Part shown: piece after piece, positions 6,516-42,400 of the stretch
Layout: every line of letters begins with the position of its first letter
Position numbering within the stretch: the stretch's first letter is position 1
UHGV virus genome: UHGV-0038016
Origin: a virus
Direction: 5' to 3' (one strand)
Length of the DNA: 64,000 bases
Position numbers and translations under genes: made by a program
The notes under the pieces: model-generated
The model's input: the letters and a program-made list of their open reading frames with translations, nothing else
What the model was told of the DNA's origin: nothing
Database searches by the model: none

Positions 6516-7015
6516 TGGATAATAACGAAAAAACATTTTGCACGGGTGGAGTAAAATTAGCTCCTCCCAAAGCAATTCCCTCTCATGTAGAATCTCTCTC
6601 TCTTGGATCTAAAGTGCTTGTAGTTTATGAGAGTCTATCTGGGAATACAAAAACTTTTGTTGATTTTATAGTAAAGGCTTATCCAAATGTTAATTTTATT
6701 ATAAAAAATACAAAAGATAACTTGACAAATTTAGAAGAATATGATAAAATAATTATAGGAACTTACACATGGAGTAACGGAAAGATTCCTAAAAATATTA
6801 AATCTTTTGTAATTTCTAATAGAGATGTATTAATAAACAAACCAGTTTTATTATTTGGTAGTGGAATTACAATTTATACTCATTTCTGTGGAGCATTAGA
6901 TAATATTCAAATTATTTTAGAGAAAGATATTCCTAAGATTAAGTTTGAATTAACTTTTATTCCAGAAGAGCATAAAGAAGATTTAGAAATGTTTAATAAT
7001 TTTATTAAGGAGTAG
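6515..7015 (+). CDS. nrdI: Flavodoxin-like protein, probable NrdI
   Basis: Contains the flavodoxin FMN-binding signature YESLSGNT and a LFGSG motif. The TAATG overlap with nrdF suggests translational coupling. Confidence 0.55.
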   Translation: MDNNEKTFCTGGVKLAPPKAIPSHVESLSLGSKVLVVYESLSGNTKTFVDFIVKAYPNVNFIIKNTKDNLTNLEEYDKIIIGTYTWSNGKIPKNIKSFVISNRDVLINKPVLLFGSGITIYTHFCGALDNIQIILEKDIPKIKFELTFIPEEHKEDLEMFNNFIKE

Positions 7016-7024
7016 TGAGATAAT

Positions 7025-7285
7025 TTGATTTATAAACTATCAAAAGATAATTGTCCATATTGTAATCAATTGGAAGGTTATTTAAAAACTAAAAATATGC
7101 AAAAATATAATAAGCATATCGTAAGTGTTCATAAAGAAAAAGATCCAGAAAAATATAATGAATTAGTAGAAAAAGGTAATGTATTATCATTACCAGTATT
7201 AATGAGAGAAGATGGAACAGTTTTAACAACTGGTTTTAATATTCAACAAATTAATTTAATGTTAAAACGAGAATTTGGTGAGTAA
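7025..7285 (+). CDS. nrdH: Glutaredoxin-like protein NrdH (CPYC active site; TTG start)
   Basis: N-terminal CPYC motif in a thioredoxin-fold-sized protein of about 86 aa within the nrd cluster. An AAGGAG RBS lies 11 nt upstream of the TTG. Confidence 0.6.
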   Translation: MIYKLSKDNCPYCNQLEGYLKTKNMQKYNKHIVSVHKEKDPEKYNELVEKGNVLSLPVLMREDGTVLTTGFNIQQINLMLKREFGE

Positions 7286-7475
7286 TATGATTAGATATTA
7301 TTCTAGAAAATATTTTTGTCCAGTATGTAAGCAGGAAAAGGATAAATTAATTCGTTTATACTCTGAAAAAAATGAACATGGAGAAAAAACTTTAAATTGT
7401 AAATATCATGGTTTTCAACAATATTGTAATTGTAGTCCTAGTGAATTGGAATTAGTTATTGAGGACGATGAATAA
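7275..7475 (+). CDS. Small zinc-ribbon protein (CPVC...CKYHG...CNC)
   Basis: 66-aa ORF with CxxC ... CxxH ... CxC cysteine/histidine spacing. Confidence 0.45.
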   Translation: MVSNMIRYYSRKYFCPVCKQEKDKLIRLYSEKNEHGEKTLNCKYHGFQQYCNCSPSELELVIEDDE

Positions 7476-7530
7476 TAATGGATGATTTCTCCTTTTTAAA
7501 TTATAAAGATAAGAAAAGGAGGAATCTTTT

Positions 7531-7782
7531 ATGATGAAAGTAAATTTAAATCTTGACAATTTTTGTCCAATTTGTTATGATGAAGAAAGAGTTATGAGAA
7601 ATGTATATCGTAAATTAGACGATAAATCAGGAGATCTGTATTGTCCAAAACATGGTTTAATAATGAATGAAGATATTGATTTAACTAGGTATGTTGAACG
7701 AACAATTGATGATGGAACTTCAGAGGATACAAACGCAGTGGTTGGAAAAGCTATTGTAGGTAAAGCCGTTATTCCTAATTAA
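7531..7782 (+). CDS. Small zinc-ribbon protein, paralog-like of 7275..7475 (CPICYDEE...CPKHG)
   Basis: 83-aa ORF with an AAAAGGAGG RBS. The CxxC...CPKHG spacing matches the preceding gene's CxxC...CKYHG. Confidence 0.45.
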   Translation: MMKVNLNLDNFCPICYDEERVMRNVYRKLDDKSGDLYCPKHGLIMNEDIDLTRYVERTIDDGTSEDTNAVVGKAIVGKAVIPN

Positions 7783-7786
7783 AAAT

Positions 7787-7815
7787 TTGATTTTTTATGT
7801 TCAACATGATATAAT
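7787..7815 (+). promoter_or_regulatory. Promoter (-35 TTGATT 7787-7792; 17 nt; -10 TATAAT 7810-7815 within CATGATATAAT)
   Basis: Hexamers read directly. The downstream leader TATAATTAATTATAAAGTTAAA is shared with the promoter at 21728. Confidence 0.55.
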
Positions 7816-7868
7816 TAATTATAAAGTTAAATAAGAAATATTAAAAAGTATTTATGGAGGATTTTATT

Positions 7869-11060: not shown

Positions 11061-12656
11061 ATGAAGTATTATCGTAAAGACATTGCTAATATGTTATTAG
11101 GAGCTTTATATGTACAACCAACATTATTCGATCACCCTAAAATGGCTGCGGTAAATGAAGCTGATTTTGTTGATAGTTTACAAAAAGTTTCTTATGCAAT
11201 TATGTATAATTTATATTCAATGGGACATCCAAAATTTAGCTTAGGTGTAATAGAAAGCTATATTCAAGGTCGCCCGCAAATTAATACTTTATTTGATGAA
11301 GAGATAGAAATTGCTGAAGGGAAATATGCTCGACAAGGTGAATATTACTTTGATAAACTATCACAAGTGGGAGATCCAACAGCTTTTGAGCCAGCCCTAG
11401 ATACAATTAAAAAATTAACTCTACTTCGCTCTCTTGAGAAAAATGGCGTATCTGTAAAACAGTTTTATGATTGGGATACAGAGAATCAAGAATTAATTGC
11501 TTATCAACAAAATTGGTTTGAACATACTTCTTTGAAGGATATGGCAAATGAGATTTCAGATAATATCCAACATATTATGGATACTTCTGCAAGCAATGTA
11601 GCTTCTGAAAGTATTCAAGCTGGTGAAGGATTGTTAAATTTAATTGATTCTTTTAAAGAAGCCCCAGATTTTGGTTCACCTTCTCCAATTGCAATGATGG
11701 ATACGATAACTCGTGGAGATCGATTAGGTAAATTCTATTTGTACTCAGCTCCAACAGGAAATGGGAAATCTCGTATTATGATGTCTCGAGCTTGTTATTC
11801 TGCCTTTCCTGTAATTTATGACCAACATAAACAAGCTTGGATTGACAACGGAGAAGCAGAAGGTTCTTTATTTATTTCTACAGAGTTAGATTCAGAAGAA
11901 TGTCAAACAATGGCATTAGCATTTCTTACAGGAATTCCTGAAGATATCATTTTAGATGGTAAATTTGACGAAGATCAAGAAAAAGTATTAAGAGAAGGAG
12001 CTAGAATTATGTCTGAGGCTCCGTTGTACTTTGAAATTATTTCAGATTTCTCTGTTACAGAAATTGAAGCTACTATTAGAAAATATTATCGAGAACATGA
12101 TGTTAAATATTTCCGTTTTGATTATATTCATACATCTATGAAATTTTTAGCAGAGATTGCTTCTATTTCAAACGGTATGAAATTACGTGAAGACCAAGTA
12201 TTATTTATGTTGTCAACTAAATTAAAAGATTTAGCAAACCAACTAGGAATTTTTATTGAGTCAGGAACTCAGGTGAATGGAGATTATCTTGAAGGAGAAC
12301 TTAATCAAAATTTGCTTCGAGGATCTAAAGCTATTGCGGATCGTATTGATGTAGGAATGATTGCAGTTAAAATTAGACCTATTGATGAACAAGCTGTAGA
12401 AACATTTGTAAGTCAAGGATATTTTCGTCCAAACTATATTATTAGCTTTTATAAAGTACGACGAGGTAAATATGCTGGTGTTAAATTGTGGTGCGACGTA
12501 GATTTGGGAACTTGTAGATGTAAAGGTTTGTTTATTACAGATAGTAATAATATCCCTATTGGAATTGATGCCACTTCTATTAAGGTTCAAAAAGCAGCAG
12601 AAAAAAATGTTAAGCGTCGTAACCAAACGGTAGATGATCGAAAAAGTGCTTTTTAA
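11061..12656 (+). CDS. DnaB-like replicative DNA helicase
   Basis: Walker A SAPTGNGKS in the C-terminal RecA-like half, with an N-terminal helical domain. Length is about 531 aa. The primase gene follows. Confidence 0.65.
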   Translation: MKYYRKDIANMLLGALYVQPTLFDHPKMAAVNEADFVDSLQKVSYAIMYNLYSMGHPKFSLGVIESYIQGRPQINTLFDEEIEIAEGKYARQGEYYFDKLSQVGDPTAFEPALDTIKKLTLLRSLEKNGVSVKQFYDWDTENQELIAYQQNWFEHTSLKDMANEISDNIQHIMDTSASNVASESIQAGEGLLNLIDSFKEAPDFGSPSPIAMMDTITRGDRLGKFYLYSAPTGNGKSRIMMSRACYSAFPVIYDQHKQAWIDNGEAEGSLFISTELDSEECQTMALAFLTGIPEDIILDGKFDEDQEKVLREGARIMSEAPLYFEIISDFSVTEIEATIRKYYREHDVKYFRFDYIHTSMKFLAEIASISNGMKLREDQVLFMLSTKLKDLANQLGIFIESGTQVNGDYLEGELNQNLLRGSKAIADRIDVGMIAVKIRPIDEQAVETFVSQGYFRPNYIISFYKVRRGKYAGVKLWCDVDLGTCRCKGLFITDSNNIPIGIDATSIKVQKAAEKNVKRRNQTVDDRKSAF

Positions 12657-12684
12657 AGTCAAGCTAATTGCTTGACTTTTTATT
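12655..12684 (+). terminator. Intrinsic terminator (AAAGTCAAGC/GCTTGACTTT stem plus TTTTTATTTTTATT)
   Basis: 10-bp stem overlapping the helicase stop codon. The 3' arm contains the -35 TTGACT of the next promoter. Confidence 0.65.
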
Positions 12685-12700
12685 TTTATTGTGATATAAT
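12672..12700 (+). promoter_or_regulatory. Promoter (-35 TTGACT 12672-12677; 17 nt; extended -10 TGtGATATAAT, TATAAT 12695-12700)
   Basis: Consensus hexamers. This is a terminator-promoter fusion. Confidence 0.6.
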
Positions 12701-12742
12701 ATAAATGTATAAAAAATAATTAAAAAAGTAGGTTGTAGGTAT

Positions 12743-13900
12743 ATGGCAGAATATGGACGTGATAAGAATGCTATAAAAGCTGGGATGTCTATCCAACAGG
12801 TATATGATTTTTTAGTAGGACAAGGTATTCAAGGTAATTGGGTTGATGAACACCAATTAGTCTTTGAAACTGTCTGTCATAATCATAAAGGTGAGGGCAG
12901 TCATAAACTTTATTATTATGATAATACAAAATTATTTAATTGTTACACTGGCTGTGGTAGATTTGATATTTTTGAATTATTATCTAAAATGTATATGAAT
13001 GAATATCATGAAGAACTTTTATTAGAAGAGGCTATTGATATTTATATTCAATCACAAGAGTTTATGACTTTAGGTGATAATGATATGTTGCATAATGATG
13101 ATTTAGATATTGAATATCAAGAACCAAGTTTTATGTTTTATGACAAAAAACCTTATTTACGTTATCCTAGAATTATTGTAAATGATTGGGAACGAGAAGG
13201 TATATCAGCAGAAACTCAACATAAATATAATATCAGATATAATTATGCAACAACGGGTTTAATGTTTCCTCATTTAGATGAAGAAGGAAATCTATTAGGT
13301 ATACGACAAAGAATAGCTAATAGCGAAATGATAGAACGGTATGGAAAATATAGACCTGTTGAACGTGAAGGAATACTATATTCTTCGCCACTATCATTTT
13401 ATTTATTCGGTTTATTTTTTAATGCTAATAATATTAGAAGAGAAAGAAAAGCCATTGTTTTTGAGGGAGAGAAATCGGTCATGAAAATGGATGATTTATT
13501 ATCCCCAAAGAAGAATATTGGTGTAGCAGCATTTGGTATGCACTTTTCACGGCATCAATATGAAGCATTAAAAAAATTAGGTGTAGAAGAAATTATTTTT
13601 GCTTTTGATAGACAATTTCAATCTATGAAGTATGATAGAGAATATGATAACTTAATAGGAATTTTTAAAACAATACAAGAACGTTTTGGAACTAATGAAG
13701 ATGGTATTAAAATAAGTTTTATTTTAGATACTAATATGATTTCAGGATATAAAGATTCTCCAGTAGATTGCGGTTTTGAAGTTTTTGCAGAATTATATGG
13801 AGAACGAAAAACATACAAAGAGATAGATGAAAATTTTGTAGAAAAATTAGAACTATGGGATTCCATAGGAACAGATGAAGAGGAGTATGATATATATTGA
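12743..13900 (+). CDS. DNA primase (DnaG-like: zinc-binding N-terminus plus TOPRIM)
   Basis: CHNHKGEGSH...CYTGCG fits a CHC2-type zinc-binding pattern. The TOPRIM-like segment IVFEGEKSVMKMDD is followed by FAFDRQ (DxD-like). Confidence 0.7.
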   Translation: MAEYGRDKNAIKAGMSIQQVYDFLVGQGIQGNWVDEHQLVFETVCHNHKGEGSHKLYYYDNTKLFNCYTGCGRFDIFELLSKMYMNEYHEELLLEEAIDIYIQSQEFMTLGDNDMLHNDDLDIEYQEPSFMFYDKKPYLRYPRIIVNDWEREGISAETQHKYNIRYNYATTGLMFPHLDEEGNLLGIRQRIANSEMIERYGKYRPVEREGILYSSPLSFYLFGLFFNANNIRRERKAIVFEGEKSVMKMDDLLSPKKNIGVAAFGMHFSRHQYEALKKLGVEEIIFAFDRQFQSMKYDREYDNLIGIFKTIQERFGTNEDGIKISFILDTNMISGYKDSPVDCGFEVFAELYGERKTYKEIDENFVEKLELWDSIGTDEEEYDIY

Positions 13901-15636
13901 GAACGCAACTAATTGGAAAAAATGATGATAACATTATTAACATTTTCATAAATAGAGGAATAAACCCAGATAAGATTTTTAGATTAAATGATTCAGCGTT
14001 GCACGATCCTCTCTTAATAAAAAATTTGAAAGAGGTTGCTGAAATTATTCACGACAAAATCGTAAATTCAAAAGATAAAATATTATTAATTCAAGACCCT
14101 GATGCAGATGGTTATACATCTACAGCTATTATCTATAATTATTTAAAAGATTGTTATAAAGAAGAAATAACAAATAGAATAATAATTGTTTTCCAAGAGA
14201 ACAAAGAACATGGAATTCCTGTAAAAACAGTGGAAGATATTATGGGAGAACATAAGGTAGATTTAATTATAGCTCCTGACTGTTCTTCGAATGAATATGA
14301 TGTTCATAAGTATATTGTAGAAAAGTTGAATATACCTATTGTAATTTTGGATCACCACGACGCACCTAAATTTTCAGAATATGCTACAATGGTAAATATT
14401 TCTTTAGATGATTACCCTAATAAGAAATTATCAGGTGCAGGGGTTTGTTTAAAATTTGCTGCGTTGTATGATAAAATGTATGACTTCGACCACTCAGAAA
14501 AATATTATGATCTTGCTGCTATTGGGATTGTAGGAGATATGATCGAAATTAATACTTTAGAAACAATTTATATTGTTCAGCAAGGAATGAGAAATATTCA
14601 TAATACTTTTTTAAAAGCATTATACAAGGCTAAGTCATTTAATCTTGGAGGACAGGTAACACCAATTGGTTTATCTTTTTCTATTGTTCCAATGATTAAT
14701 GCAGTAACACGAGTAGGAACAATGGATGAGAAAAAAGAAGTTACAAAAGCTATGGTCAGTGATAAACCTTATGACGTACCCTCAACAAAACGTGGAGCTA
14801 AAGAGGGAGATACAGAAGTGTTCCATGAAGCAGTTGTTCGGAAAATGAATAATATTAAGGCTCGTCAGGATAGATTGAGAGATAATGCCTTTAATTCATT
14901 AGAAACTCAAATTGAAGAAAATAAATTAACTGACAACCAGATTCTAATTTTAGATACAAAAAATGAATTTCCAAAAACCTTTACAGGATTAATTGCTAAT
15001 CAATTTGTTTCAAAATATAAAAAGCCAACTTTAGTAGGAACGTATTTTGAAAAAGATGGAAAAACCTTTTTTGGTGGGTCGGCTCGTGGAGATGATAAAT
15101 CTGACTTACCAGAATTAAAACGATTTGAGCAAGAAAGTGGATTATTTGAATTTGCAGAAGGTCACGAAGGAGCTCACGGATTTGCCTTTGCTGCTGATAA
15201 AAAGGATGAAATTGTAGAATATTTTAATAAACAATTATCAGAAATTGTCTTTGAACCAATATATTCTGTAGATTTTGATATTTCTTGGCAACAGATGTCT
15301 AAAGAAAATTTAACAGAAATTACTCGTTATGCTACATTTTGGGGGAAAGGTTTGGAAGAGCCTACTTTTGTTTTAAGAGATATTCCTGTTAAAAAAGATG
15401 ATATAGTTGTGGGTGGAGAATTTGATAATCATAAGATAACATTTTCTGCTGGAGGACTGGAGTTTATTAAGTTTAAGGGTGTTAGCACTGAAACAGCACA
15501 AAAACTTATGAAAAACCAGCAATCAAAAATTGATGTAGTTGGAACTATTAAGATGAGTACTTTTAGAGGTCGTACGTTCCTACAAATGTTTGTTGCAGAT
15601 TTAGAATTAAAATCAGCGCAAAAATACATTTTCTAA
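13897..15636 (+). CDS. DHH-family phosphoesterase, RecJ-like ssDNA exonuclease
   Basis: DHH motifs DPDADGYTS and ILDHHDAP, followed by a DHHA1-like C-terminal region (GGGH-like GAHGFAFAA). Confidence 0.65.
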   Translation: MRTQLIGKNDDNIINIFINRGINPDKIFRLNDSALHDPLLIKNLKEVAEIIHDKIVNSKDKILLIQDPDADGYTSTAIIYNYLKDCYKEEITNRIIIVFQENKEHGIPVKTVEDIMGEHKVDLIIAPDCSSNEYDVHKYIVEKLNIPIVILDHHDAPKFSEYATMVNISLDDYPNKKLSGAGVCLKFAALYDKMYDFDHSEKYYDLAAIGIVGDMIEINTLETIYIVQQGMRNIHNTFLKALYKAKSFNLGGQVTPIGLSFSIVPMINAVTRVGTMDEKKEVTKAMVSDKPYDVPSTKRGAKEGDTEVFHEAVVRKMNNIKARQDRLRDNAFNSLETQIEENKLTDNQILILDTKNEFPKTFTGLIANQFVSKYKKPTLVGTYFEKDGKTFFGGSARGDDKSDLPELKRFEQESGLFEFAEGHEGAHGFAFAADKKDEIVEYFNKQLSEIVFEPIYSVDFDISWQQMSKENLTEITRYATFWGKGLEEPTFVLRDIPVKKDDIVVGGEFDNHKITFSAGGLEFIKFKGVSTETAQKLMKNQQSKIDVVGTIKMSTFRGRTFLQMFVADLELKSAQKYIF

Positions 15637-15679
15637 TATTAAAGGATTTTTATCGTCTACGGACGCTAATCTAGGAGAA

Positions 15680-15718
15680 AAATATGGTTCATGCTATTTT
15701 TTGAATTGAACCATATTT
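15680..15718 (+). terminator. Perfect 12-bp inverted repeat (AAATATGGTTCA ... TGAACCATATTT, 15-nt loop); terminator or protein-binding site in an ori-like intergenic region
   Basis: Seen directly. It follows the RecJ-like gene by 44 nt; T-rich sequence is nearby but not immediately 3'. Confidence 0.4.
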
Positions 15719-15750
15719 ACCTTCTGCCTATTTTCTTTTTCCTAAAACCA

Positions 15751-15759
15751 CCCCCCCCC
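15751..15759. repeat. Homopolymeric C9 tract
   Basis: Nine consecutive C in an otherwise AT-rich genome, about 28 nt upstream of a small ORF. Confidence 0.8.
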
Positions 15760-15786
15760 TACATATAAATTTAAGGAGTGATAGAT

Positions 15787-15915
15787 ATGAAACGCAAAGT
15801 AACAAAAAAAGAATTTGTTTCAGAATATTTAGCTCGTAACCCAGGTCAAATGAAAAACGCTTTAATTGCTTGGGAACAAATTAAAACTAAACGAAATAAA
15901 AAGTCAAGTAAATAA
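15787..15915 (+). CDS. Small highly basic protein (42 aa), hypothetical
   Basis: MKRKVTKKEFVSEYLARNPGQMKNALIAWEQIKTKRNKKSSK with an AAGGAGTG RBS 8 nt upstream. Its stop lies in the loop of the following terminator. Not in the ORF track because it is under the length cutoff. Confidence 0.35.
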   Translation: MKRKVTKKEFVSEYLARNPGQMKNALIAWEQIKTKRNKKSSK

Positions 15916-15930
15916 CTTGACTTTTTATTT
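15900..15930 (+). terminator. Intrinsic terminator (AAAGTCAAG/CTTGACTTT stem plus TTTTTATTTTTAT)
   Basis: Same hairpin family as the ones at 12655 and 17726. Confidence 0.6.
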
Positions 15931-15945
15931 TTATAATGATATAAT
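15918..15945 (+). promoter_or_regulatory. Promoter (-35 TTGACT 15918-15923; 16 nt; -10 TATAAT 15940-15945 in ATGATATAAT)
   Basis: Terminator-promoter fusion of the same family. Confidence 0.55.
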
Positions 15946-15977
15946 ATAAATATAATGAATAAAAAAGGAATGATTAA

Positions 15978-17159
15978 ATGTCATTAACAAGTAAACAAAA
16001 ACAAGGTTTAGAAATTGCTGTAGAACGATATAAAAGTGGAGAACGTTATACTACAATCGCTGGTTTTGCTGGAACAGGTAAAACTTTTTTAGCAAAAAAA
16101 ATTATTAATGCACTAGAGCTATCACCATTACAATATATGGTTGGAGCTTTTACAGGTAAGGCAGCTTATCGTCTTCAACAAACAGGATTCCCAGCAGCAC
16201 AAACTTTACACAAATTGCGATATAAGTCTATCAAAATTAATAATAACTTTATTCATCAAAAGCTTCCTATTGAAAACTATCAGGGAATTAAATTAATTTT
16301 AATAGATGAGATTTCAATGGTTCCAGAAGATCTATTAAAAGATATAGCAGATTTAGGTATTCATATTATAATGCTTGGAGATCCAGGGCAGTTACCTCCT
16401 GTAGGAGCAGATAATGGTATGTTAAAAAATCCTCACATTTTCTTAGATGAAATCATGCGCCAAGAGGAAGGAAATAGTATTATTCAACTATCTAAAATGA
16501 TTCGAGAAGGGGAGGTTATAAAACCTTTTTCTGATGATTTTGTTAAGATGGTTCCAAAAGAAGAAATTTCTGTAGGTATGCTTTTATGGGCAGACCAAGT
16601 TTTGTGTGGAAGAAACGCAACCAGAAAACTTTACAACGATGAAATCCGTTTAGCCAAGGGTTTTGTTTCACCTACTCCTCAAGAGGGAGATAAAATTATT
16701 GTAACTAACAATAACTGGGATATTTTAAATGAAGAAGGATTTCCTCTTATTAATGGTATGCTAGGTGAAGTTAATTTTTCGAGTGGTGTATTTAAAAGTG
16801 AAAAATTAATGGGGAATGCAATGGGAAAAGATATTGAGATCGCTCGAGTTCGTTTTATTCCAGAATTTGGTGGTGGAGAGTTTTCTATCAAGTATGATAT
16901 GCTTCCTTTTATTAAAGAAAACCAAAAATCTTATATTGTAAATCAGTTTGCAAAAGGTGATGCTAGAGTTAATTATATTGATTATGGATATTGTATTACT
17001 ACACATAAATCTCAAGGTAGTGAATATTCTAAAGTTTTAGGAATCGAAGAACGATTAAATGGAAAAAATCATAGAAAATGGTTATATACAATGGTTACTA
17101 GGGCTTCGGAAAAACTAGTATTAGCTTATGATAAAAATAGTGGAATTTGGGAGAAATAA
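15978..17159 (+). CDS. RecD/Dda-like SF1 DNA helicase
   Basis: Walker A GFAGTGKTF, Walker B LILIDEISMV, and a C-terminal TTHKSQGSEY motif typical of RecD-like helicases. Length about 393 aa. Confidence 0.7.
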   Translation: MSLTSKQKQGLEIAVERYKSGERYTTIAGFAGTGKTFLAKKIINALELSPLQYMVGAFTGKAAYRLQQTGFPAAQTLHKLRYKSIKINNNFIHQKLPIENYQGIKLILIDEISMVPEDLLKDIADLGIHIIMLGDPGQLPPVGADNGMLKNPHIFLDEIMRQEEGNSIIQLSKMIREGEVIKPFSDDFVKMVPKEEISVGMLLWADQVLCGRNATRKLYNDEIRLAKGFVSPTPQEGDKIIVTNNNWDILNEEGFPLINGMLGEVNFSSGVFKSEKLMGNAMGKDIEIARVRFIPEFGGGEFSIKYDMLPFIKENQKSYIVNQFAKGDARVNYIDYGYCITTHKSQGSEYSKVLGIEERLNGKNHRKWLYTMVTRASEKLVLAYDKNSGIWEK

Positions 17160-17161
17160 AA

Positions 17162-17734
17162 ATGGCAAAATTATATTTTAAATATGGAGTTATGAACTCA
17201 GGAAAAAGTTTATCTTTAATTACAACTGCTTACAATTATGCTCAACAAGGAAAAAATGTATTAATTTATACTTCTGATTTAGATACTAGAAGCGGTTTCA
17301 AAAAGATCGTTTCTAGAACTGGCTTTAATATTGAGGCAGAATACTTAAATGATAGCAGAGAAGAAATTTTAGAAAAAGCTAAAAAAGAAAAGGTTCATGC
17401 TATCTTAGTGGATGAATCCCAGTTTTTATCAAGAGAACAGGTAATTACCTTAGCCGGAGTAGCAGATGAGGGCGATATTCCTGTTCTCTGTTGGGGATTA
17501 AAAAATGATTTTCAAAATAATTTATTTGAAGGTTCTAAAGCATTGTTAGAATTTGCAGATAAATTAGAAGAGTTAAAAACTGTATGTACATTATGCGATA
17601 AAAAAGCAACTATGAATTTACGTACAATTAATGGAGAGGCTGTTTATAGAGGTGAACAAATTTTAATTGGAGATAACGAATATATTCCTGTATGTAGAAA
17701 ATGTTATTTTAACTATAATGAATTGGTCAAGTAA
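17162..17734 (+). CDS. tdk: Thymidine kinase
   Basis: Start chosen at MAKLYF (the track's upstream extension lacks an RBS). P-loop GVMNSGKS; zinc-ribbon lid CTLCDKKA...CRKCY; length about 190 aa. Confidence 0.8.
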   Translation: MAKLYFKYGVMNSGKSLSLITTAYNYAQQGKNVLIYTSDLDTRSGFKKIVSRTGFNIEAEYLNDSREEILEKAKKEKVHAILVDESQFLSREQVITLAGVADEGDIPVLCWGLKNDFQNNLFEGSKALLEFADKLEELKTVCTLCDKKATMNLRTINGEAVYRGEQILIGDNEYIPVCRKCYFNYNELVK

Positions 17735-17753
17735 TTATTTTACTTGACTTTTT
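17726..17753 (+). terminator. Intrinsic terminator (GTCAAGTAA/TTACTTGAC 9-bp stem plus TTTTT)
   Basis: Perfect stem overlapping the tdk stop. The 3' arm carries the next -35. Confidence 0.65.
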
Positions 17754-17772
17754 ATATTTTAAATGATATAAT
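17743..17772 (+). promoter_or_regulatory. Promoter (-35 TTGACT 17743-17748; 18 nt; -10 TATAAT 17767-17772 in ATGATATAAT)
   Basis: Same fused terminator-promoter architecture. Confidence 0.55.
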
Positions 17773-17807: not shown

Positions 17808-20800
17808 TTGGGATACTATTCAATTCATAATCATAGTAGTTTTAGTAATGCATTATTAGGATTCGCTGATTCAATTAATGATATTAAACAATCAGTTGAT
17901 TATGCTTTAGATTTAGGTTTAAGCGGTTATGTTTTAACAGACCACGAAGGATTATCTGGTCACGCTCAATTAATGCATTATAGAGATAAATTAGAAAAAG
18001 AAGGTCGTATAGACCATGAATCTTTTACAATTGGTTTTGGAGATGAAATTTATTTAGTCGAAGATTTAGAAATGGGACAAAAATATTATCATCATTTATT
18101 GATTGCAAAAGATAAAAAAGGACACAAAATTTTAAGAATGTTATCTTCTAAGGCTTGGGAAAATAGTTATTGGGATAGAGGCTTACAAAGAACTCCGATT
18201 ACTCGTGAACAAGTAAAAGAAATTATGGAACAGGAAAATGGAAAAGGACATATTGTATCTTCTACAGCTTGTCTTGGAAGTTTTGAAGCTCAAGCTTTTT
18301 TGAAAATTAAAGCGGCAGAAGAAGTTCCATTTGGAGAAAAAATTAACCAAGAAAAAATCTTAGAAGAAAAACAAAAAATTGTTGATTTTGTTTTATGGAA
18401 TCAAGAAGTTTTTGGCGAAGAAGATTTTTATTTAGAAATTGCTCCAAATACTTCAGAAGAACAAAGATATGTAAATAGAAGAGTTTGGAAGCTTGGGAAG
18501 GCAATGAATGTTCCAGTTGTGTTTAGTACAGATAGTCATTATCTTACTGAAGCAGATAGAGAAATTCATAAAGCTTATTTGAATAGTAAGCAAGCAGAGC
18601 GAGAAGTTGACGATTTCTATTATACTGCTTATATGATGCCACCTGAACAAGTTAAGGAATATTTTTTATTAGATTTTTCAGAAGAAGAGTTTCAGGAAAT
18701 GTTAGATAACTTAGAAAAAATTAGAAGTGGGATCAAACATTATTCTTTGTTTAAGGAACAAGAAATTCCATATGTTCCTGTTGATGTACCAGAATTAAGC
18801 AAAACATATAATAATATTGATTTAAGCAAATATAAATATTTAACAATGTTGCTAAATTCTGACGAAGACCAAGATTTATATTGGAGTAGAACTTGTTTGA
18901 ACCAATTAGAAATTAGAAATGTATTAAATGAAAGATATTTAGAACAATTGGAAATTGAAGCTACTACACTGGTAAAAATTTCTGAACGTTTAAAACAACC
19001 TATGACGTCTTATTATAATACAGCTCAAAAAATTATTGAATTAATTTGGGATGAAGGAGATTCATTAGTTGGAGTATCTCGTGGTTCAGCTATGGGATTT
19101 ATGTCAAACTGGTTGTTGGACGTTACACAAGTAAATCCTATTCCATATGTAGGAGATATGAGCTGGAGGCATCTAGCTGAAAGTCGTCCAGAATTGCCTG
19201 ACGTCGATATAGATTCACAAGGTTCTAAACGAGAACAAATTTTATTGGCGTTAAAAAACTTTTTTGGTCATGATAGAGTTTTAAATATCGCAACATTTGG
19301 AACTGAAAAAGCAAAATCAGCATTAGCTACTGCTGCACGAGGACTTGGTATAAGTGATGATGTTTCAAGTTATTTAAGTGGTTTAATTCCAAATGAACGT
19401 GGTTTTGATTGGAATTTAAAAGATATGGTTTATGGGAATCCAGAAAAAGGTCGTAAACCAGTTTCTGAGTTTATTAATGAAATTAATAAATACGAAAATT
19501 ATTTAGAAACAGCTTTAGCAATTGAAGGAATGGTAAAAAGTAGAGGTTCTCATGCTTCAGGAGTTTATATTTTTAATCATCCTTATACAGATATTAATGC
19601 TATGATGAAAACTCCTAACGATCTAGAAGTAACTCAATGGGATTATCATGATAGTGATGATATGGGAGCATTAAAAATGGATATGTTATCCATCGAAGCT
19701 TTAGATAAAATTCGTCAAACAATGGATTTATTGATTAAAGACAATAGAATGGAATGGAAGGGTTCTTTAAAAGAAACATATTTTAATACATTGCATCCTG
19801 ATGTATTAGATTATAGCAAAGAATTGTGGGAACCAACATGGGATAACAAAGTTTTGGATATTTTTCAGCTTGATACACCTGTAGGAAAAGAGGCTGTAAG
19901 GAAGGGTAAACCAGAAGATGTAAAAGATGCAGCAGCATTGAATTCTTTAATGAGGCTTATGGCAACTGAAAATGGTGAAATGCCACTAGAGAAATATGCA
20001 AGATTTAAAGAGAATATCCAACTTTGGTATGAAGAATTAGAAAAATATAATATTCCAGCAGATGAAATTCCTATCCTAGAGAAACATTTCTTATCTTCTT
20101 ATGGAGTTCCAAATACACAGGAAGAATTAATGTTGATTTTAATGGATGAAAACATTTGTAATTTTACAGAAACAGAAGCTAATGCAGCACGTAAAATTAT
20201 TGGTAAAAAACTAATGGATAAAATTCCAGAACTTAGAGCCAAAATTTTTGAACAAGCAGTATGTTCGAGTGAAACGGTTCATTATATTTGGGATTCAGCG
20301 GTTAGTGTTCAAATGGGATATAGTTTCTCAATTTTGCATACAATTGGATATACAATTATTGCATTACAAGAATTAAACTTATTTAATCATTATCCATCTA
20401 TTTATTGGAACTGTGGCTGTTTGATTGTCAACTCAGGAGATGAAACAGGAACTTCAACAGATTATTCTAAAATGGCAGTAGCGTTAGGAAATACTATTAA
20501 ACATGGGATTAAAGTAGAAATGGTAGATATAAATAAATCAGAATCAAACTTTTCTCCTAATGTAGAAGGTAATTTTATTTCTTATGGTTTAAGACCATTA
20601 ACTGGGATTGGTTATGAATTTATCCAGAAAATTTTCGAGGGAAGACCATTTAGTTCTTTAGCGGATTTTGTCAGAAAGACAAACCCAAATAAAATGCAAA
20701 TGTTAACATTAATTAAGGCAGGAGCTTTTAGAGAAATAGATAGCTCTGATAGAAAAATTACTTTAGCAAAATATGCTAAAATGATGACAGGGCTTAGAAA

Positions 20801-21662
20801 AAATCTTACAATGACGCAAGTCCCATTGGTTATGAAAATTAATAGATTCCCTGAATCATTACAAGAAGAAAAACGAATTTATGAGTTTAATCGCTATGTA
20901 AATGAAGTTCTAACCAAGAGCGGACAAATTATTAGACTTGATGATCGGGCGCAAAACTTTTTATCTTCGATTGGTTTAGATGAATTTATTGAAACGTTTA
21001 GTGATGAGGATCGTTATTGGACTGTGATGAGTCGAGATAGATGGAGTAAGTTCTATGATAAAAAAATGGATACTGTTAGAAATTGGTTAAGAGAGAATAA
21101 AGAGTCTTTATTAGAAGAAATATTTTTTGATGAAATGTTAGAATTATTTGATTCATATGGTGGTCACGATTCATATGCAAGATGGGAAATGGAATCTATG
21201 AACTTCTATTATACAGAACATGAATTAAATTGTGTGGATGTAGATAGATATGGAATTGATAATTTTGAACTTCTTCCAAGAGAGGCACAAAAAATCAATC
21301 CTTACGCAAGTTTTTCTAAGTTAAAATTAAATAGAATTGTTGGAACTATAATTGGTAAAAATAAGGTTAAAGCAAGTATCGATGTTTTAACTCCAGAAGG
21401 AACTGTTGTTTTAGTTAAAATGTACAAAGGAGATTTTTCTTACTGGGATAAACAAATTTCAGAAAGAACATCAACAGGAAAGAAAACTGTTGTAGAAAAA
21501 TCTTTCTTTGAAAGAGGAAACAAACTATTTATTACTGGTTTTAGACGTGACGATCAATTTATTCCTAGAGCATATAATGATACAGCAACTCCAAAAATTG
21601 GATTAATTACTGAAACTCGTGATGATGGAAGTATTGTTCTGAAAACAGAACGAGCAGCTTAA
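17808..21662 (+). CDS. dnaE: DNA polymerase III alpha-like replicative polymerase (PHP domain; TTG start)
   Basis: N-terminal PHP motifs (SIHNHSSFS, LTDHEGLSGH). The 1284-aa size and position in the replication module fit. A GAAAGGAG RBS lies upstream of the TTG. Confidence 0.8.
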   Translation: MGYYSIHNHSSFSNALLGFADSINDIKQSVDYALDLGLSGYVLTDHEGLSGHAQLMHYRDKLEKEGRIDHESFTIGFGDEIYLVEDLEMGQKYYHHLLIAKDKKGHKILRMLSSKAWENSYWDRGLQRTPITREQVKEIMEQENGKGHIVSSTACLGSFEAQAFLKIKAAEEVPFGEKINQEKILEEKQKIVDFVLWNQEVFGEEDFYLEIAPNTSEEQRYVNRRVWKLGKAMNVPVVFSTDSHYLTEADREIHKAYLNSKQAEREVDDFYYTAYMMPPEQVKEYFLLDFSEEEFQEMLDNLEKIRSGIKHYSLFKEQEIPYVPVDVPELSKTYNNIDLSKYKYLTMLLNSDEDQDLYWSRTCLNQLEIRNVLNERYLEQLEIEATTLVKISERLKQPMTSYYNTAQKIIELIWDEGDSLVGVSRGSAMGFMSNWLLDVTQVNPIPYVGDMSWRHLAESRPELPDVDIDSQGSKREQILLALKNFFGHDRVLNIATFGTEKAKSALATAARGLGISDDVSSYLSGLIPNERGFDWNLKDMVYGNPEKGRKPVSEFINEINKYENYLETALAIEGMVKSRGSHASGVYIFNHPYTDINAMMKTPNDLEVTQWDYHDSDDMGALKMDMLSIEALDKIRQTMDLLIKDNRMEWKGSLKETYFNTLHPDVLDYSKELWEPTWDNKVLDIFQLDTPVGKEAVRKGKPEDVKDAAALNSLMRLMATENGEMPLEKYARFKENIQLWYEELEKYNIPADEIPILEKHFLSSYGVPNTQEELMLILMDENICNFTETEANAARKIIGKKLMDKIPELRAKIFEQAVCSSETVHYIWDSAVSVQMGYSFSILHTIGYTIIALQELNLFNHYPSIYWNCGCLIVNSGDETGTSTDYSKMAVALGNTIKHGIKVEMVDINKSESNFSPNVEGNFISYGLRPLTGIGYEFIQKIFEGRPFSSLADFVRKTNPNKMQMLTLIKAGAFREIDSSDRKITLAKYAKMMTGLRKNLTMTQVPLVMKINRFPESLQEEKRIYEFNRYVNEVLTKSGQIIRLDDRAQNFLSSIGLDEFIETFSDEDRYWTVMSRDRWSKFYDKKMDTVRNWLRENKESLLEEIFFDEMLELFDSYGGHDSYARWEMESMNFYYTEHELNCVDVDRYGIDNFELLPREAQKINPYASFSKLKLNRIVGTIIGKNKVKASIDVLTPEGTVVLVKMYKGDFSYWDKQISERTSTGKKTVVEKSFFERGNKLFITGFRRDDQFIPRAYNDTATPKIGLITETRDDGSIVLKTERAA

Positions 21663-39492: not shown

Positions 39493-42400
39493 TTAGTCAG
39501 TATCTTCACCATTGTATCCAACAAAGGCCCAGCCCTTAATAGTTGGAGAATCAACCGATACAATTTGTACTGGTTTCATCATAAATCTTTCTTGCGCTTC
39601 TAATTTTTTAACTTTCGTTGTATCTTTATTTAAAGTAAATACTCTTTCATAAACTTCCCCATTACGATAATAACCTGCAAATTCTCTAGGAGTCATAACA
39701 TTATATCCATCGTAATCAGAATTAAATACTTTCAAGCCACTACTATCAATTCGGACATTTGTAGAATATACTTCTTCGTGATGAGATTGCCAAGAGAGAG
39801 GATATGGACCAATGTTAATCATTAATCCTGCTGCGGATAATGTTGCATCTGCGCTTCCTTCTCCTTCTAAACCAATTCTAATAGTAACTGCACTTGTGTT
39901 AGTTACTGAAAAAGTAACAGACATTCGTTGGTATCCAATAGTATCAGCAGAGGCTTCTGAAACAGCTATTTCTTCTCCAGTTTTTGTATTTAATACTTTT
40001 ACATAATATTTACTCTTCCCTGACTGATTAATTTTATTAGCGTACCAGCTTAGAGTATATTCTGTATTTGGATTAGGTAGAAGAATATCTTGGTCTAGTT
40101 TATATCTTAAACCTTTTAATTCAAAACCAGCAATTAAACCAAGTTCTTCTAGTGATTCATCACCTAAAATTTGTCTAATTTGGGCATTGGCTGAATCATT
40201 TTTATGCCAGAAATCAAACATCCCAGAATATAAAACTACACTAGGTTTTCTAAAATCAAAATAGTCAGTAACAGTTGTAGAACTATTATACAAACATACC
40301 TTCATAAAAGCGGCTCCAGATGGTATTGTTACATTAACAGAATAATTACTCCAAATATCTTGGACTATATTATTTGTTTTTACAGTGTAAGAATCTGTTT
40401 CAAATATGGAACCAGCATTGTGCTTTTTGTCTGTAAATAGATAGATAAAACCTTGTCCATCTCCTATTGTATCCGCTTCAGAATTAGCTGATGGATCGCT
40501 TGCTGCCCCATAGAATCTAATAGAAACATAAATATGTTGAGTATCTCCAATAGTGTTAGGGATACGAGCCTGTCCAGAAATATTAATCAATTGACCTGGA
40601 GTAACAGGAATATTTTTACTATAACTATATTTGGTTCTTGAATTAGTTCCACCAATACGCATAATATTATATTCTGGAAAGTCATTTTCTGCTCCTATTA
40701 TTTGACCCATTCCTGTATCATTATACACCCAACCATTATCATTTAATCCAGTAGTTGAGATTGTTCCTTCAAATTTAGGATTTGTTAACATTTCATCGCT
40801 AGGCGCTGTATCTTCCCATTGGAAACCTGTTGAATTTCTAATTAAGTTAACCCCACCAGCTTTATCAATACCAAAATTGAATTTATTCATTTCTTGTTCA
40901 AATTCTGATTTGTTTACATATGTTGTATCAATTCCAGCAAAAGCTTCTTGCATCTGCTTATTATATTCTTCTATTTTATCTGATAATTCATGGTTGGCAC
41001 TACTTAGTTCATCGACCGCATCAGTTTTAGCATACACTTTCGACATATCTTCTGAACCAACTACTGTTTGAACAATAGAATCATCCGAAGTTTTTTGGGT
41101 AATTTGATAAATCCAGTCAATAATTGTAGAACCGTCTTCATTATTTAACCATGGAAGCATTTCTAAATCAGAAGCACTTAGAACAACCCATCCCCATTCG
41201 TAAGTTGTTTCTATTTTTTCTTGTGCAATACCTTTGGCACCGTTAACGTCTTCGCTACCATTTTCTGTAGTGATTGACTTCCAATTATAAGAACTAGGAG
41301 TGGTTGGATCTGGTGCTGTATCAGTTACACAATATCCAATATACATAGGTTTTTGACTACTATTATAAGTAACACTAAACCCTGGATCTGGTGTGACACC
41401 ATCTTCTTGATATCCAGTTGGTGTATTTGCATAAGCATAATGCGCATATTCAGTTCCAATTACACTTTCAATTGCTGATTTACCCCAACGATAAACTAAA
41501 CTTGGATTAGTTTTATCTAGAGGATCTCCACTACCACTAGAAGTATCTAACCATAATAATCCAGGATAAGGATTAAGTGGAGCAGTTGGTTGTCGTAAAA
41601 TTAACGGTTTTGTTGCATCGAAGCTTTTATTGTTTACAGTCATATAATCAAAAGCTGCCATAGAATTATATTCTACTTGAGCTTTAAAACTAATTGAATT
41701 AGCCTCTAAGAATACTACTGGTTCAACAACAATATATTTTTTATTTAAGGTAATTCCATTTCCAGCAGTAATTACTGTCCATTCCACCGAAGAATCTTTT
41801 GACATATACCATGTTACTTTATCTGGTTCTACTATATCTCCATCAGATTGTGTTTCTACATTAATTTGAATTGGAGATTGCTCAATGTTTGTTCCACCAT
41901 TAGAATAAACTTTAGCTACAAGTCCGCCACTCCCTTTGATTCTACTCCAAGTATAATCACCATAGGCGCTTGGTGCAGTTGAAGTTTGTGTAATAGCAAT
42001 ACCAATGTATTTAGTTTTGCTATTAGGTGTTGTAGTCATTGGATTACCATTGGCGTTTTCTGAATAACGAATCCATGTATAACTACTTGAACCATTAGAA
42101 CCATTCGAACCATCTTTGACAATATTAATACTCTTTTGATCTAATTGTACATTTTTAGCTCCAGCAACATACATCTTAACTCGTGCAGACAAAACGTTTA
42201 ATGAAGAAGGAGTATAGGTATAGGTTAATGCGTCTGCATCATACTTAGTAGTCCATGTAGTTCCATTAGTAGTTTCTTCTACAACAATACGAGATTTGAT
42301 GTTCTCAATAGATTTGTCCCCTGTTTGAGCCATACCAGAAATAGTAATATTTTCAGGAACTAGTTTACTTGCTCCTCTTGGTAATGACATTACTTGGCTG

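Follow-up and report, generated by a model that had tools for sequence, protein, structure and literature searches.

Why does a phage genome of low GC content keep a run of nine cytosines between two of its replication genes? The question is raised by UHGV virus genome UHGV-0038016, of which a stretch of 64,000 nucleotides (nt), called the window here, was analyzed. In this stretch a 150-nt gap (15637-15786) follows a gene for a RecJ-like exonuclease (recJ) and precedes a small open reading frame (ORF) of 42 amino acids (aa) and a gene for a RecD/Dda-like helicase (recD). A sequence-only reading of the gap had singled out the C9 tract, an inverted repeat, a short palindrome and the basic small ORF, and had proposed a replication origin, a packaging-related site or a slippage switch for the small gene. 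Comparison with related phages gives a different answer: the gap is the copy, in one clade of Enterococcus phages, of a conserved, length-constrained noncoding module of ~125 nt that occurs in large phages with SPbeta-like replication modules. Most likely, the module marks and controls the boundary between the primase-like/recJ transcript and the transcripts on the recD side, rather than serving as an origin or as a switch of the small gene.

An unusual gap between recJ and recD

The C9 tract is indeed highly unusual, being the only run of seven or more C or G residues in 64 kb, where ~0.004 would be expected. The 12-bp inverted repeat is also real, its arms being perfect when read from the sequence (Table 1). 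Perfect inverted repeats of at least 12 bp with loops of 3-20 nt number six in the window versus 0.17 expected from Markov-1 simulations, and all six are intergenic. Only three of the 12 pairs in the gap repeat are G-C. Folding extends it to an interrupted stem of 20 bp, with a predicted free energy no weaker than that of the obvious terminators of the window; an alternative outer helix pairs 15672-15679 with 15737-15744. The short palindrome, CGTC-TACG-GACG, lies downstream of the recJ stop codon (TAA, 15634-15636) and can be refined to a C(UACG)G tetraloop hairpin. It forms the first of four sequence blocks, named A to D here. The consensus of block A, YCGYTTRCGG, begins at 15653, and its pattern is unique in the window. 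The AGGAG of block B is at once a Shine-Dalgarno (SD)-like sequence and the outer 5' arm of the long hairpin. The hairpin, moreover, contains a mini-ORF of six codons preceded by a perfect SD sequence; this mini-ORF is probably vestigial or incidental. The highly basic 42-aa ORF does begin directly downstream, 15786 being the base before its ATG. The C tract lies 28 nt upstream of this ATG and 14 nt upstream of its SD sequence.

The 3' part of the gap is exceptionally rich in C on the + strand. The 60 nt from 15711 to 15770 hold 22 C and a single G, and this C-G difference of +21 is the extreme of the 24-kb block of + strand genes (mean -3.8, sd 4.1; z about +6). Folding predicts the C-rich tail to be unpaired. 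The tail thus has the features by which Rho utilization (rut) sites are recognized, namely 60-80 nt of C-rich, G-poor and unstructured RNA. The GC content of the whole gap is 0.33, versus 0.32 for the window.

Searches for kin of the spacer were negative. No other copy or repeat of it was found in the window or in complete relatives, making it single-copy per genome. Rfam gave no match at E <2 in the window region and none at E <=1 in eight related loci, and tblastx of the gap against relatives gave no match. A decayed gene or hidden ORF across the spacer was rejected, tblastx being negative and no frame being open in all lineages; so was the 29-aa PHANOTATE call in the VRE9 records, whose frame shifts with tract length and which has no SD sequence. 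A middle promoter of the SPO1 gp28 type running through AGGAGA (AGGAGA-N17/18-TTTNTTT) was rejected too: the gap site does not match the pattern, and the motif does not recur, with one match elsewhere in 64 kb versus 0.2 expected. Also set aside was a conserved long-range helix of UAGGAGAA with UUUUCCUA, which is present in the clade and absent in two of the more distant loci introduced below, L066 and L076.

Conservation within the Enterococcus phage clade

The window comes from an Enterococcus phage of the EF1/EF5/H1/VRE9 clade. Over 1 kb around the poly-C gap it is 95.6-99.1% identical to VRE9_1 to VRE9_4, H1, EF1 and EF5, which are unclassified Caudoviricetes with genomes of 134-142 kb; EF1 has been placed near a proposed new family of gut phages (PMC10607447). 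Twenty distinct genomes or contigs of the clade, drawn from GenBank, IMG/VR, a JGI scan, and ENA and Logan assemblies, were compared over 2.6 kb. Among the public runs from which loci were obtained are ERR10890107, SRR30155088 and SRR13089955. In recJ and recD, 29% of the third codon positions are variable and about 2% of the first and second. Against the 29% at third positions, the core of the gap (15654-15719; small hairpin, linker, 12-bp stem and loop) has one variable column in 66, and the claim that the region is structured and more than an ordinary spacer is upheld. Block A is invariant in all 20 genomes. The SD region (15770-15787) has no variable column in 18, and the intervening stretch (15720-15769, C tract included) has 10 in 50. 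The stem varies once in the clade: A15710G, present in VRE9_4 and in an ENA contig, replaces a U-A pair by U.G, so that the pair is kept only in the + strand RNA.

Length polymorphism of the C tract, suspected earlier, was found between isolates and assemblies; its supposed coupling to the 42-aa gene was not supported, as described below. The window and one Logan contig have C9, most others C8, several C7, in some cases with C-to-T interruptions, and one C6, and more than one length occurs within each of three sublineages. These lengths were taken from assemblies, and some of the differences may be assembly or sequencing error. Internal indels over the 2.6 kb are confined to three noncoding homopolymers: a T4/5 run at 15647, just after the recJ stop; the C tract; and an A5/6 run at 15961, in the recD leader. 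This confinement indicates that the C tract is either hypermutable or error-prone in assemblies.

A collinear module in seven lineages

Six further recJ-recD junctions were gathered through relatives of the RecD-like protein, with RecJ identities from 78% down to 54%. They are denoted L066, L069, L076 (together with L072), L073, L078 and L079, and their RecD proteins are 79, 67, 61, 60, 57 and 54% identical to that of the window, respectively. Blocks A to D occur in the same order at the recJ-recD junction in all seven lineages (RecD and RecJ 54-100% identical). The distance from the start of block A to the start of the C run is 98, 99, 100, 100, 100, 100 and 99 nt. Ungapped identity between the interiors of different lineages peaks sharply at zero shift (0.41 versus a background of 0.28), which indicates that substitutions, and no net indels, account for the divergence of the interior. 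Six-frame translation gave stops in every frame, none being open in each of the seven lineages.

The stem of block A covaries and its loop changes. The versions found are CGUC[UACG]GACG, CGUU[UACG]GACG, CCCG[UUAA]CGGG, UCCG[UUUG]CGGA, AUCG[UUUG]CGGU and CUCG[CUUG]CGGG. The loops fall in the stable UNCG and CUUG families; the window has the C(UNCG)G form, and L078 and L079 close the loop as G[CUUG]C, the L079 version being weakened. U.G pairs are present in L066, L076 and L078, and would be C.A mismatches on the opposite strand. In the long hairpin, L066 differs from the window by two compensatory pairs of the 12-bp stem (U-A to C-G and G-C to A-U); the loop sequence TGCTATTTTTT is unchanged between the two and the 15-nt loop is almost identical overall. 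Block C is T6 in five lineages and A7 in L078 and L079, and usually lies in the loop of the central hairpin. The mini-ORF is kept in L066 as MTHAIF* with its SD sequence lost; those of L078 and L079 are unrelated to it, and none is present in L069, L073 or L076.

The C tract is C7 in L066, C6 in L069, L073 and L076, C8 in L072, C5 in L078 and C9 in L079. Its retention at C5-C9, with the same flanks and the same distance from block A in spite of saturated synonymous sites, shows that it is selected, though length-tolerant, within about 5-9. The excess of C over G recurs in the relatives (z 1.7-4.3), the locus maximum of C-G falls inside the module in four of the seven loci, and the tail of L073 has no G in 60 nt.

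What follows the module is variable. In the window the next -35 hexamer lies 160 nt beyond the C tract, in the other lineages between 3 and about 50 nt, and the module is therefore not a promoter element. Terminators stand before the module in L069 and L076, inside it in L073 (a 12-bp hairpin with a U run) and 3-10 nt after the tract in L078 and L079. L076 also has an antisense gene upstream of the module: a 99-aa gene on the opposite strand (L076 1105-1404) is inserted between recJ and the module, with its start codon about 10 nt from block A. The promoter of that gene must therefore lie in or beyond the module; a consensus scan found none. In L069 a perfect hairpin of 14-16 bp, AATACACCTTCTAG[TTTG]CTAGAAGGTGTATT, encloses the recJ stop codon upstream of the module (L069 2276-2307).

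Table 1. Features of the recJ-recD region, in window coordinates
Feature	Position	Strand	Basis or remark
RecJ-like single-stranded DNA (ssDNA) exonuclease gene, last of the primase-like/recJ transcription unit	13897-15636	+	ORF; RecJ-like annotation in VRE9_4
Block A hairpin CGUC[UACG]GACG, 4-bp stem, C(UNCG)G-type tetraloop	15654-15665	+	sequence; only RNAalifold consensus helix
Block B CTAATCTAGGAG, consensus CTAnT..AGG	15666-15677	+	sequence; conserved columns CTA.T
Long interrupted hairpin: UAGG/CCUA, AGAA/UUCU and 12-bp perfect stem	15672-15730	+	folding, predicted free energy about -19 kcal/mol
5' arm of perfect 12-bp inverted repeat, AAATATGGTTCA	15680-15691	+	sequence
Mini-ORF ATG GTT CAT GCT ATT TTT TGA (MVHAIF*), 6 codons	15684-15704	+	6 nt after AGGAG, sequestered in hairpin
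15-nt loop TGCTATTTTTTGAAT with T6 tract (block C, 15697-15702)	15692-15706	+	comparison
3' arm of perfect 12-bp inverted repeat, TGAACCATATTT	15707-15718	+	sequence
U-rich tract UUUUCUUUUU, directly 3' of the extended stem	15731-15740	+	likeness to a terminator limited to this clade
Block D TTCCTAAAACCACCCCCCCCCTAC, consensus WTCC(N)nAAA..AC(5-9)TA; C9 at 15751-15759	15739-15762	+	sequence, comparison
Shine-Dalgarno sequence AAGGAG of the 42-aa ORF	15773-15778	+	sequence; invariant
42-aa basic orphan ORF, PHROG 36796, net charge about +10	15787-15915	+	clade-specific
Terminator (15894-15930) fused to strong TTGACT-17-TGnTATAAT promoter (15917-15945) for recD	15894-15951	+	11/12 promoter score
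RecD/Dda-like helicase gene	15978-17159	+	ORF, annotation

Probable terminator ancestry of the long hairpin

In relatives whose RecD is about 40% identical (IMG/VR loci), the recJ-recD synteny is kept and the junction is a hotspot for cargo, the gaps measuring 55-1280 bp and containing HNH and GIY-YIG genes besides small genes of various kinds. Immediately downstream of recJ, five of the loci show in succession a GC-rich box, AGGAAA, a hairpin flanked by A/U with T6 in its loop, a U run and a promoter. This arrangement resembles the 5' half of the module only; the C tract and the 3' half are absent. A covariance model of the post-recJ element found 15651-15743 as the second-best site of the window (17 bits, E 0.076), the best being a generic terminator at 142-202. 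Full homology to this element was rejected on the grounds of that E value and rank, leaving analogy or partial homology of the 5' half. From the hairpin and U run after recJ in these loci, and from the covariance-model match, the long hairpin would most simply be derived from a terminator.

The GC-rich box, GGCTCGGCGCGCAGGCAGTCGTCCACAGGAAA, lies at L022 2156-2250, L025 1945-2040, L028 2142-2238, L035 2407-2500 and L039 2422-2520, and is thus conserved where genome GC is only 28-30%; downstream of it come a long hairpin with A/U flanks and a promoter, and it has no Rfam match. In two loci (L034 1274-2309 and L035 914-1948) an insert of ~1 kb in the gene separates residues 422 and 423 of the RecJ-like protein. 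The cargo of L025 and L026 (1721-3001) includes a GIY-YIG-like frame with several in-frame TAG codons, in agreement with the recoding of TAG that has been reported in relatives of the group (PMC10607447).

The 42-aa ORF and the terminator-promoter cassette

The 42-aa ORF is found in the clade only. It has no Pfam match, and the function of its PHROG is unknown; the protein is predicted to form a helical hairpin (predicted local distance difference test score, pLDDT, 86) with no fold match. Its variable columns number 4 in 42 third positions versus 6 in 84 first and second positions. The ORF reads as young cargo with weak constraint at the protein level, and lies outside the conserved module. 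No homologue is present in L066, L069, L073, L076/L072, L078 or L079, all of which keep the tract motif; the tract is thus independent of that gene, and is the older of the two. In the relatives the module is followed by a promoter and recD alone (L066, L069), by a terminator and then a promoter (L078, L079), by a gene for a tetrahydrofolate dehydrogenase (L073) or by a gene with a YAcAr domain (L076 and L072).

Transcription of recD is presumably set by the cassette that overlaps the end of the 42-aa ORF, in which the 3' arm of a terminator hairpin supplies the -35 TTGACT of a TGnTATAAT promoter. The cassette is also present at 12655-12706 and 17725-17772, the copies being 90-94% identical, and the three copies indicate that the replication module is cut into short operons. 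Upstream of it, from 15338 to 15917, no sigma-70-like promoter site scoring at least 9/12 was found on the + strand. Transcription of the 42-aa ORF must therefore rely on read-through of the primase-like/recJ unit or on a promoter of unknown type.

Genomic setting

The poly-C gap sits within a rightward-transcribed, SPbeta-like replication module with annotations or domains for YorF, AAA_24, YorH, DnaB-like, primase-like, RecJ-like and RecD/Dda-like proteins, thymidine kinase and a PHP/DnaE-type polymerase. Pfam finds DHH and RecJ_OB on the identical RecJ-like product of relatives. The polymerase gene is intact in the window (1284 aa) and split into two or three pieces in some clade members (L063 9998-15674 and L064 9999-14829, homologous to window 17808-21662), where the inserts carry HNH and GIY-YIG endonuclease ORFs and resemble mobile introns or inteins. 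On the - strand, the leftward structural block contains two very large ORFs, at 39493-46386 and 50605-58626 (2297 and 2673 aa). The window has no tRNA or tmRNA.

Structured sites were found elsewhere in the window too. The arms of a perfect 15-bp inverted repeat, AAAAATCCTTACTAT / ATAGTAAGGATTTTT (1831-1845 / 1858-1872), flank the -10 (TGTTATAAT) of the strong TTGACA promoter that precedes the gene at 1881; the repeat might serve as an operator or occlude the promoter. An inverted repeat at 7475-7496 / 7514-7535, in a stretch with poor annotation (7015-7854), pairs CTCCTTTT with AAAAGGAG, the SD sequence of a small downstream ORF, which it may sequester. Several independent samples yielded Logan contigs that all start at 7806 or 7810, at ATGATATAAT, where the gene at 7854 has the -10 region of its promoter. 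This sequence recurs at other promoters; a genome end at this place was rejected, since the assemblies most likely broke at a promoter k-mer, ATGATATAAT, that is repeated.

Resemblance to known elements

Intrinsic terminators typically have a G+C-rich stem of 5-14 bp and a loop of 3-8 nt. The long hairpin is like those of Firmicutes in its position at the end of an operon and in its 12-bp stem, the mean stem in E. faecalis being 11.9 nt (de Hoon et al. 2005, PMC1187862). Its free energy equals or exceeds that of the clear terminators of the window, a U-rich tract follows its extended stem, and the more distant relatives carry a bona fide hairpin with a U run at the same place. It is unlike them in its conserved 15-nt loop, its paucity of G-C pairs and a U tract that is not conserved across lineages, and in being embedded in a fixed-length module that runs 45 nt further to the C tract.

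Lambda tR1 (rutA-boxB hairpin-rutB) and trp t / trp t' are composite Rho-dependent terminator arrangements. The module shares with them a hairpin at an operon boundary with C-rich, G-poor, unstructured RNA beside it, its C>G bubble being the extreme of the transcription unit, and the order of an intrinsic hairpin followed by a factor-type site. Rut sites are not known to depend on a homopolymeric C run, fixed spacing or conserved flanking motifs, all three of which the module has. Hairpins with C(UUCG)G-type tetraloops were reportedly described in T4 intercistronic regions by Tuerk and co-workers in 1988; block A resembles them in being a C(UNCG)G hairpin that closely follows a stop codon and precedes an SD-ATG, and differs in being one block of a larger conserved module. 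Downstream of stp in the T4-like phage JS10, GCGUC[UUCG]GACGC-TAAT-GAGG-AAAATATG is 81% identical over 58 nt (E 5e-4). Homology was rejected here; the phage family is unrelated, and the hairpin-TAAT-SD-AAAATATG syntax is taken as convergent.

The cassette before recD recalls the promoter-early plus stem-loop (PeSL) cassettes that bound mobile gene cassettes in T4-type phages (PMC2839356, PMC4122927). Like these it is a fused terminator and promoter, is repeated and brackets small variable cargo; the likeness concerns this flanking cassette only, whereas the poly-C module is single-copy and is not a promoter. Contingency loci, for example Neisseria porA and opc, also have poly-G/C tracts, in the spacers of their promoters. 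As in these, a C tract of polymorphic length between isolates lies upstream of a small gene; unlike these, no -35/-10 pair flanks the tract, the tract is kept without the gene, and it is part of a larger module. G/C runs are elements of R-loop-primed origins as well, as in the ColE1 RNA II/template C run and the mitochondrial conserved sequence block II (CSB II). The module shares with these a conserved G/C run in an AT-rich noncoding region beside replication genes, and lacks an unwinding element. R-loop priming needs G-rich RNA, and leftward transcription would thus be required at the module; no leftward promoter is conserved, the only 9/12 site lying inside the clade-specific 42-aa ORF.

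The module fits none of these families of elements in full, and it lacks both the promoter of a contingency locus and the iterons and DNA unwinding element (DUE) of an origin. It is classed as a phage operon-boundary cis element that borrows known parts; what is truly unusual about it is a selected homopolymeric C tract at a fixed distance from a hairpin.

Models for the function of the module

The reading we prefer, tentatively and with a rough probability of 0.4, is that the module is a + strand RNA element of the operon boundary, composed of a stabilizer hairpin, a terminator-derived hairpin and a C-rich tail. The + strand is suggested by the compensatory and wobble changes in the stems, by a register shift in block A that keeps the tetraloop, by the depletion of G on that strand and by the terminator ancestry of the long hairpin. 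We infer that the module is transcribed, and it would act in cis, as RNA, at the end of the recJ transcript. The stable tetraloop hairpin, ~20 nt after the recJ stop, would protect or define the 3' region of the upstream mRNA. The long hairpin, which may descend from an ancestral intrinsic terminator and has the UUUUCUUUUU tract after it in this clade, would be a leaky terminator or attenuator, or a hairpin recognized by a protein or a ribonuclease. The G-poor, C-rich tail with the C tract would stay single-stranded and offer a landing platform to a factor. The best-known candidate for loading on the tail is a Rho-type termination factor, no other bacterial factor being well known for a preference for poly(C). 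The three parts would jointly insulate the next promoter or gene from read-through, and in this clade the read-through RNA would also carry the promoterless 42-aa ORF.

Several observations weigh against this reading. The 15-nt loop is outside the usual terminator rules, and a consensus terminator scan did not call the hairpin. The RNAalifold consensus of the seven lineages recovers block A alone; the central hairpin is clear in only four to six of the seven, and position-matched pair probabilities recover it in four. At the positions of the U tract, L076, L078 and L079 are rich in A, and L066 has no such tract. In L069 and L076, C exceeds G only weakly (z 1.7-1.8), and the strong upstream terminators of these two lineages, joined in L076 by the antisense gene, make transcription from recJ into the module doubtful there. 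A simple terminator or rut site needs neither a fixed spacing of 98-100 nt nor a conserved loop, and T6 is swapped for A7 in two lineages. Spacing, loop, swap and the presence of the module behind strong terminators are left unexplained. Finally, the role of Rho is limited in Firmicutes (PMC1187862).

Some of these points suit a site that works as DNA. An origin, a primosome/helicase loading or priming site, or a region bound by a phage regulator is the second most likely possibility. Block A, with its CCG..CGG dyad, and the C/G tract would be two contacts ~9.5 helical turns apart around a central A/T tract. The constant spacing across seven lineages, with interior identity of only ~41% and no net indels, is in its favour, as are the equivalence of T6 and A7 as duplex DNA, though not as RNA, and the persistence of the module downstream of the terminators in L069 and L076. 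So are its single copy beside the DnaB-like, primase-like and RecJ-like genes of the replication module and the varying distance (3 to 160 nt) to the next promoter. On the other hand, no iterons, direct-repeat family or tandem repeats occur in or near 15637-15786, GC content is at background with no AT-rich unwinding element, and the GC skew switches at about 24.2 kb, where transcription converges, with no inflection at the gap; the origin or packaging site proposed earlier thus found no positive evidence. Stem changes that are compensatory, or U.G on the + strand only, the tetraloop-keeping register shift, the strand-specific depletion of G and the absence of the whole 3' half from the relatives with ~40% RecD identity also speak against a DNA site. 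It is doubtful, if conceivable, that the module represents a previously undescribed class of cis elements of phages with SPbeta-like modules, either a priming site in DNA or ssDNA or a structured RNA that recruits a poly(C)-binding factor. In the former version the G run of the template would give a stable C-rich primer and the hairpins would form in the displaced + strand; in either, genomes of ~30% GC would have a homopolymeric C tract that functions and is under selection. A separate, trans-acting small RNA of ~110-130 nt, derived from a 3' untranslated region (UTR) or made from its own promoter and directed at phage or host mRNAs, is unlikely. It would combine the 5' tetraloop hairpin, the conserved loop and a single-stranded C-rich seed, and would agree with the + strand evidence, the conserved module length, the better conservation of TGCTATTTTTT and of the sequence of blocks A and B than of the stem between the window and L066, and the intrinsic terminators just after the tract in L078 and L079, which is the usual architecture of small RNAs and 3'-UTRs. 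Yet no promoter-like site lies upstream, no terminator follows directly in the window, L066, L069 or L073, and neither an Rfam match, a consensus fold nor a target was identified.

Three explanations of low probability remain. Phase variation of the 42-aa gene, in which the C tract would be a promoter spacer (TTCCTA ... TATAAA at 15764-15769) and slippage between C7 and C9 would tune promoter strength, deserves hardly any credence. It is true that the tract differs in length among near-identical haplotypes in all three sublineages (C6-C9), that it is one of the few indel sites, that TATAAA stands 4 nt after it and that a real promoter occupies the equivalent stretch in the ~40%-RecD relatives. 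However, the ORF and its SD sequence are both downstream of the tract; the best -35 candidates match 2-3 of 6 positions and nothing reaches 9/12 at any tract length, the candidate -10 is mutated to TACAAA in one sublineage, the tract and its flanks are conserved in six lineages that lack the gene, and assembly or sequencing error may account for part of the length differences. An attenuator in which translation of MVHAIF blocks the hairpin and permits read-through into the small ORF is very unlikely. AGGAG placed 6 nt before an ATG has a chance of ~0.006 in 150 nt (a rough estimate), the SD sequence and AUG are predicted to be sequestered in the 5' arm of the stem, L066 retains six codons despite a change of stop from TGA to TAG, and L078 and L079 have mini-ORFs with SD sequences at the same place; against this, L066 has lost the SD sequence, three lineages have no ATG, the peptides are unrelated across lineages, and conservation of the ORF is inseparable from that of the hairpin and loop. 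That the gap has no function, being a spacer left by cargo insertion with an unstable homopolymer and chance hairpins, is disfavoured and equally improbable. The junction is a cargo hotspot and 15720-15769 varies near-neutrally; the near-invariance of the core relative to the neutral-proxy sites, the covarying stems, and the blocks, spacing and C run retained across lineages with saturated synonymous sites speak against it.

Implications

Long C runs are nearly absent from these genomes of ~30% GC and are mutationally unstable, and they are usually dismissed as noise or taken for a phase switch. The retention of this tract across lineages with proteins of only 54% identity, at a distance from the hairpin fixed to +/-1 nt, shows selection. 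The comparisons separate the element from the neighbouring orphan gene and suggest that a terminator-derived hairpin has been built into a larger module. They provide a concrete cis element in the replication module of a poorly studied group of phages that includes candidates for Enterococcus therapy. If the DNA-level reading is true, this phage family would have in the module its first candidate for an origin or priming site.

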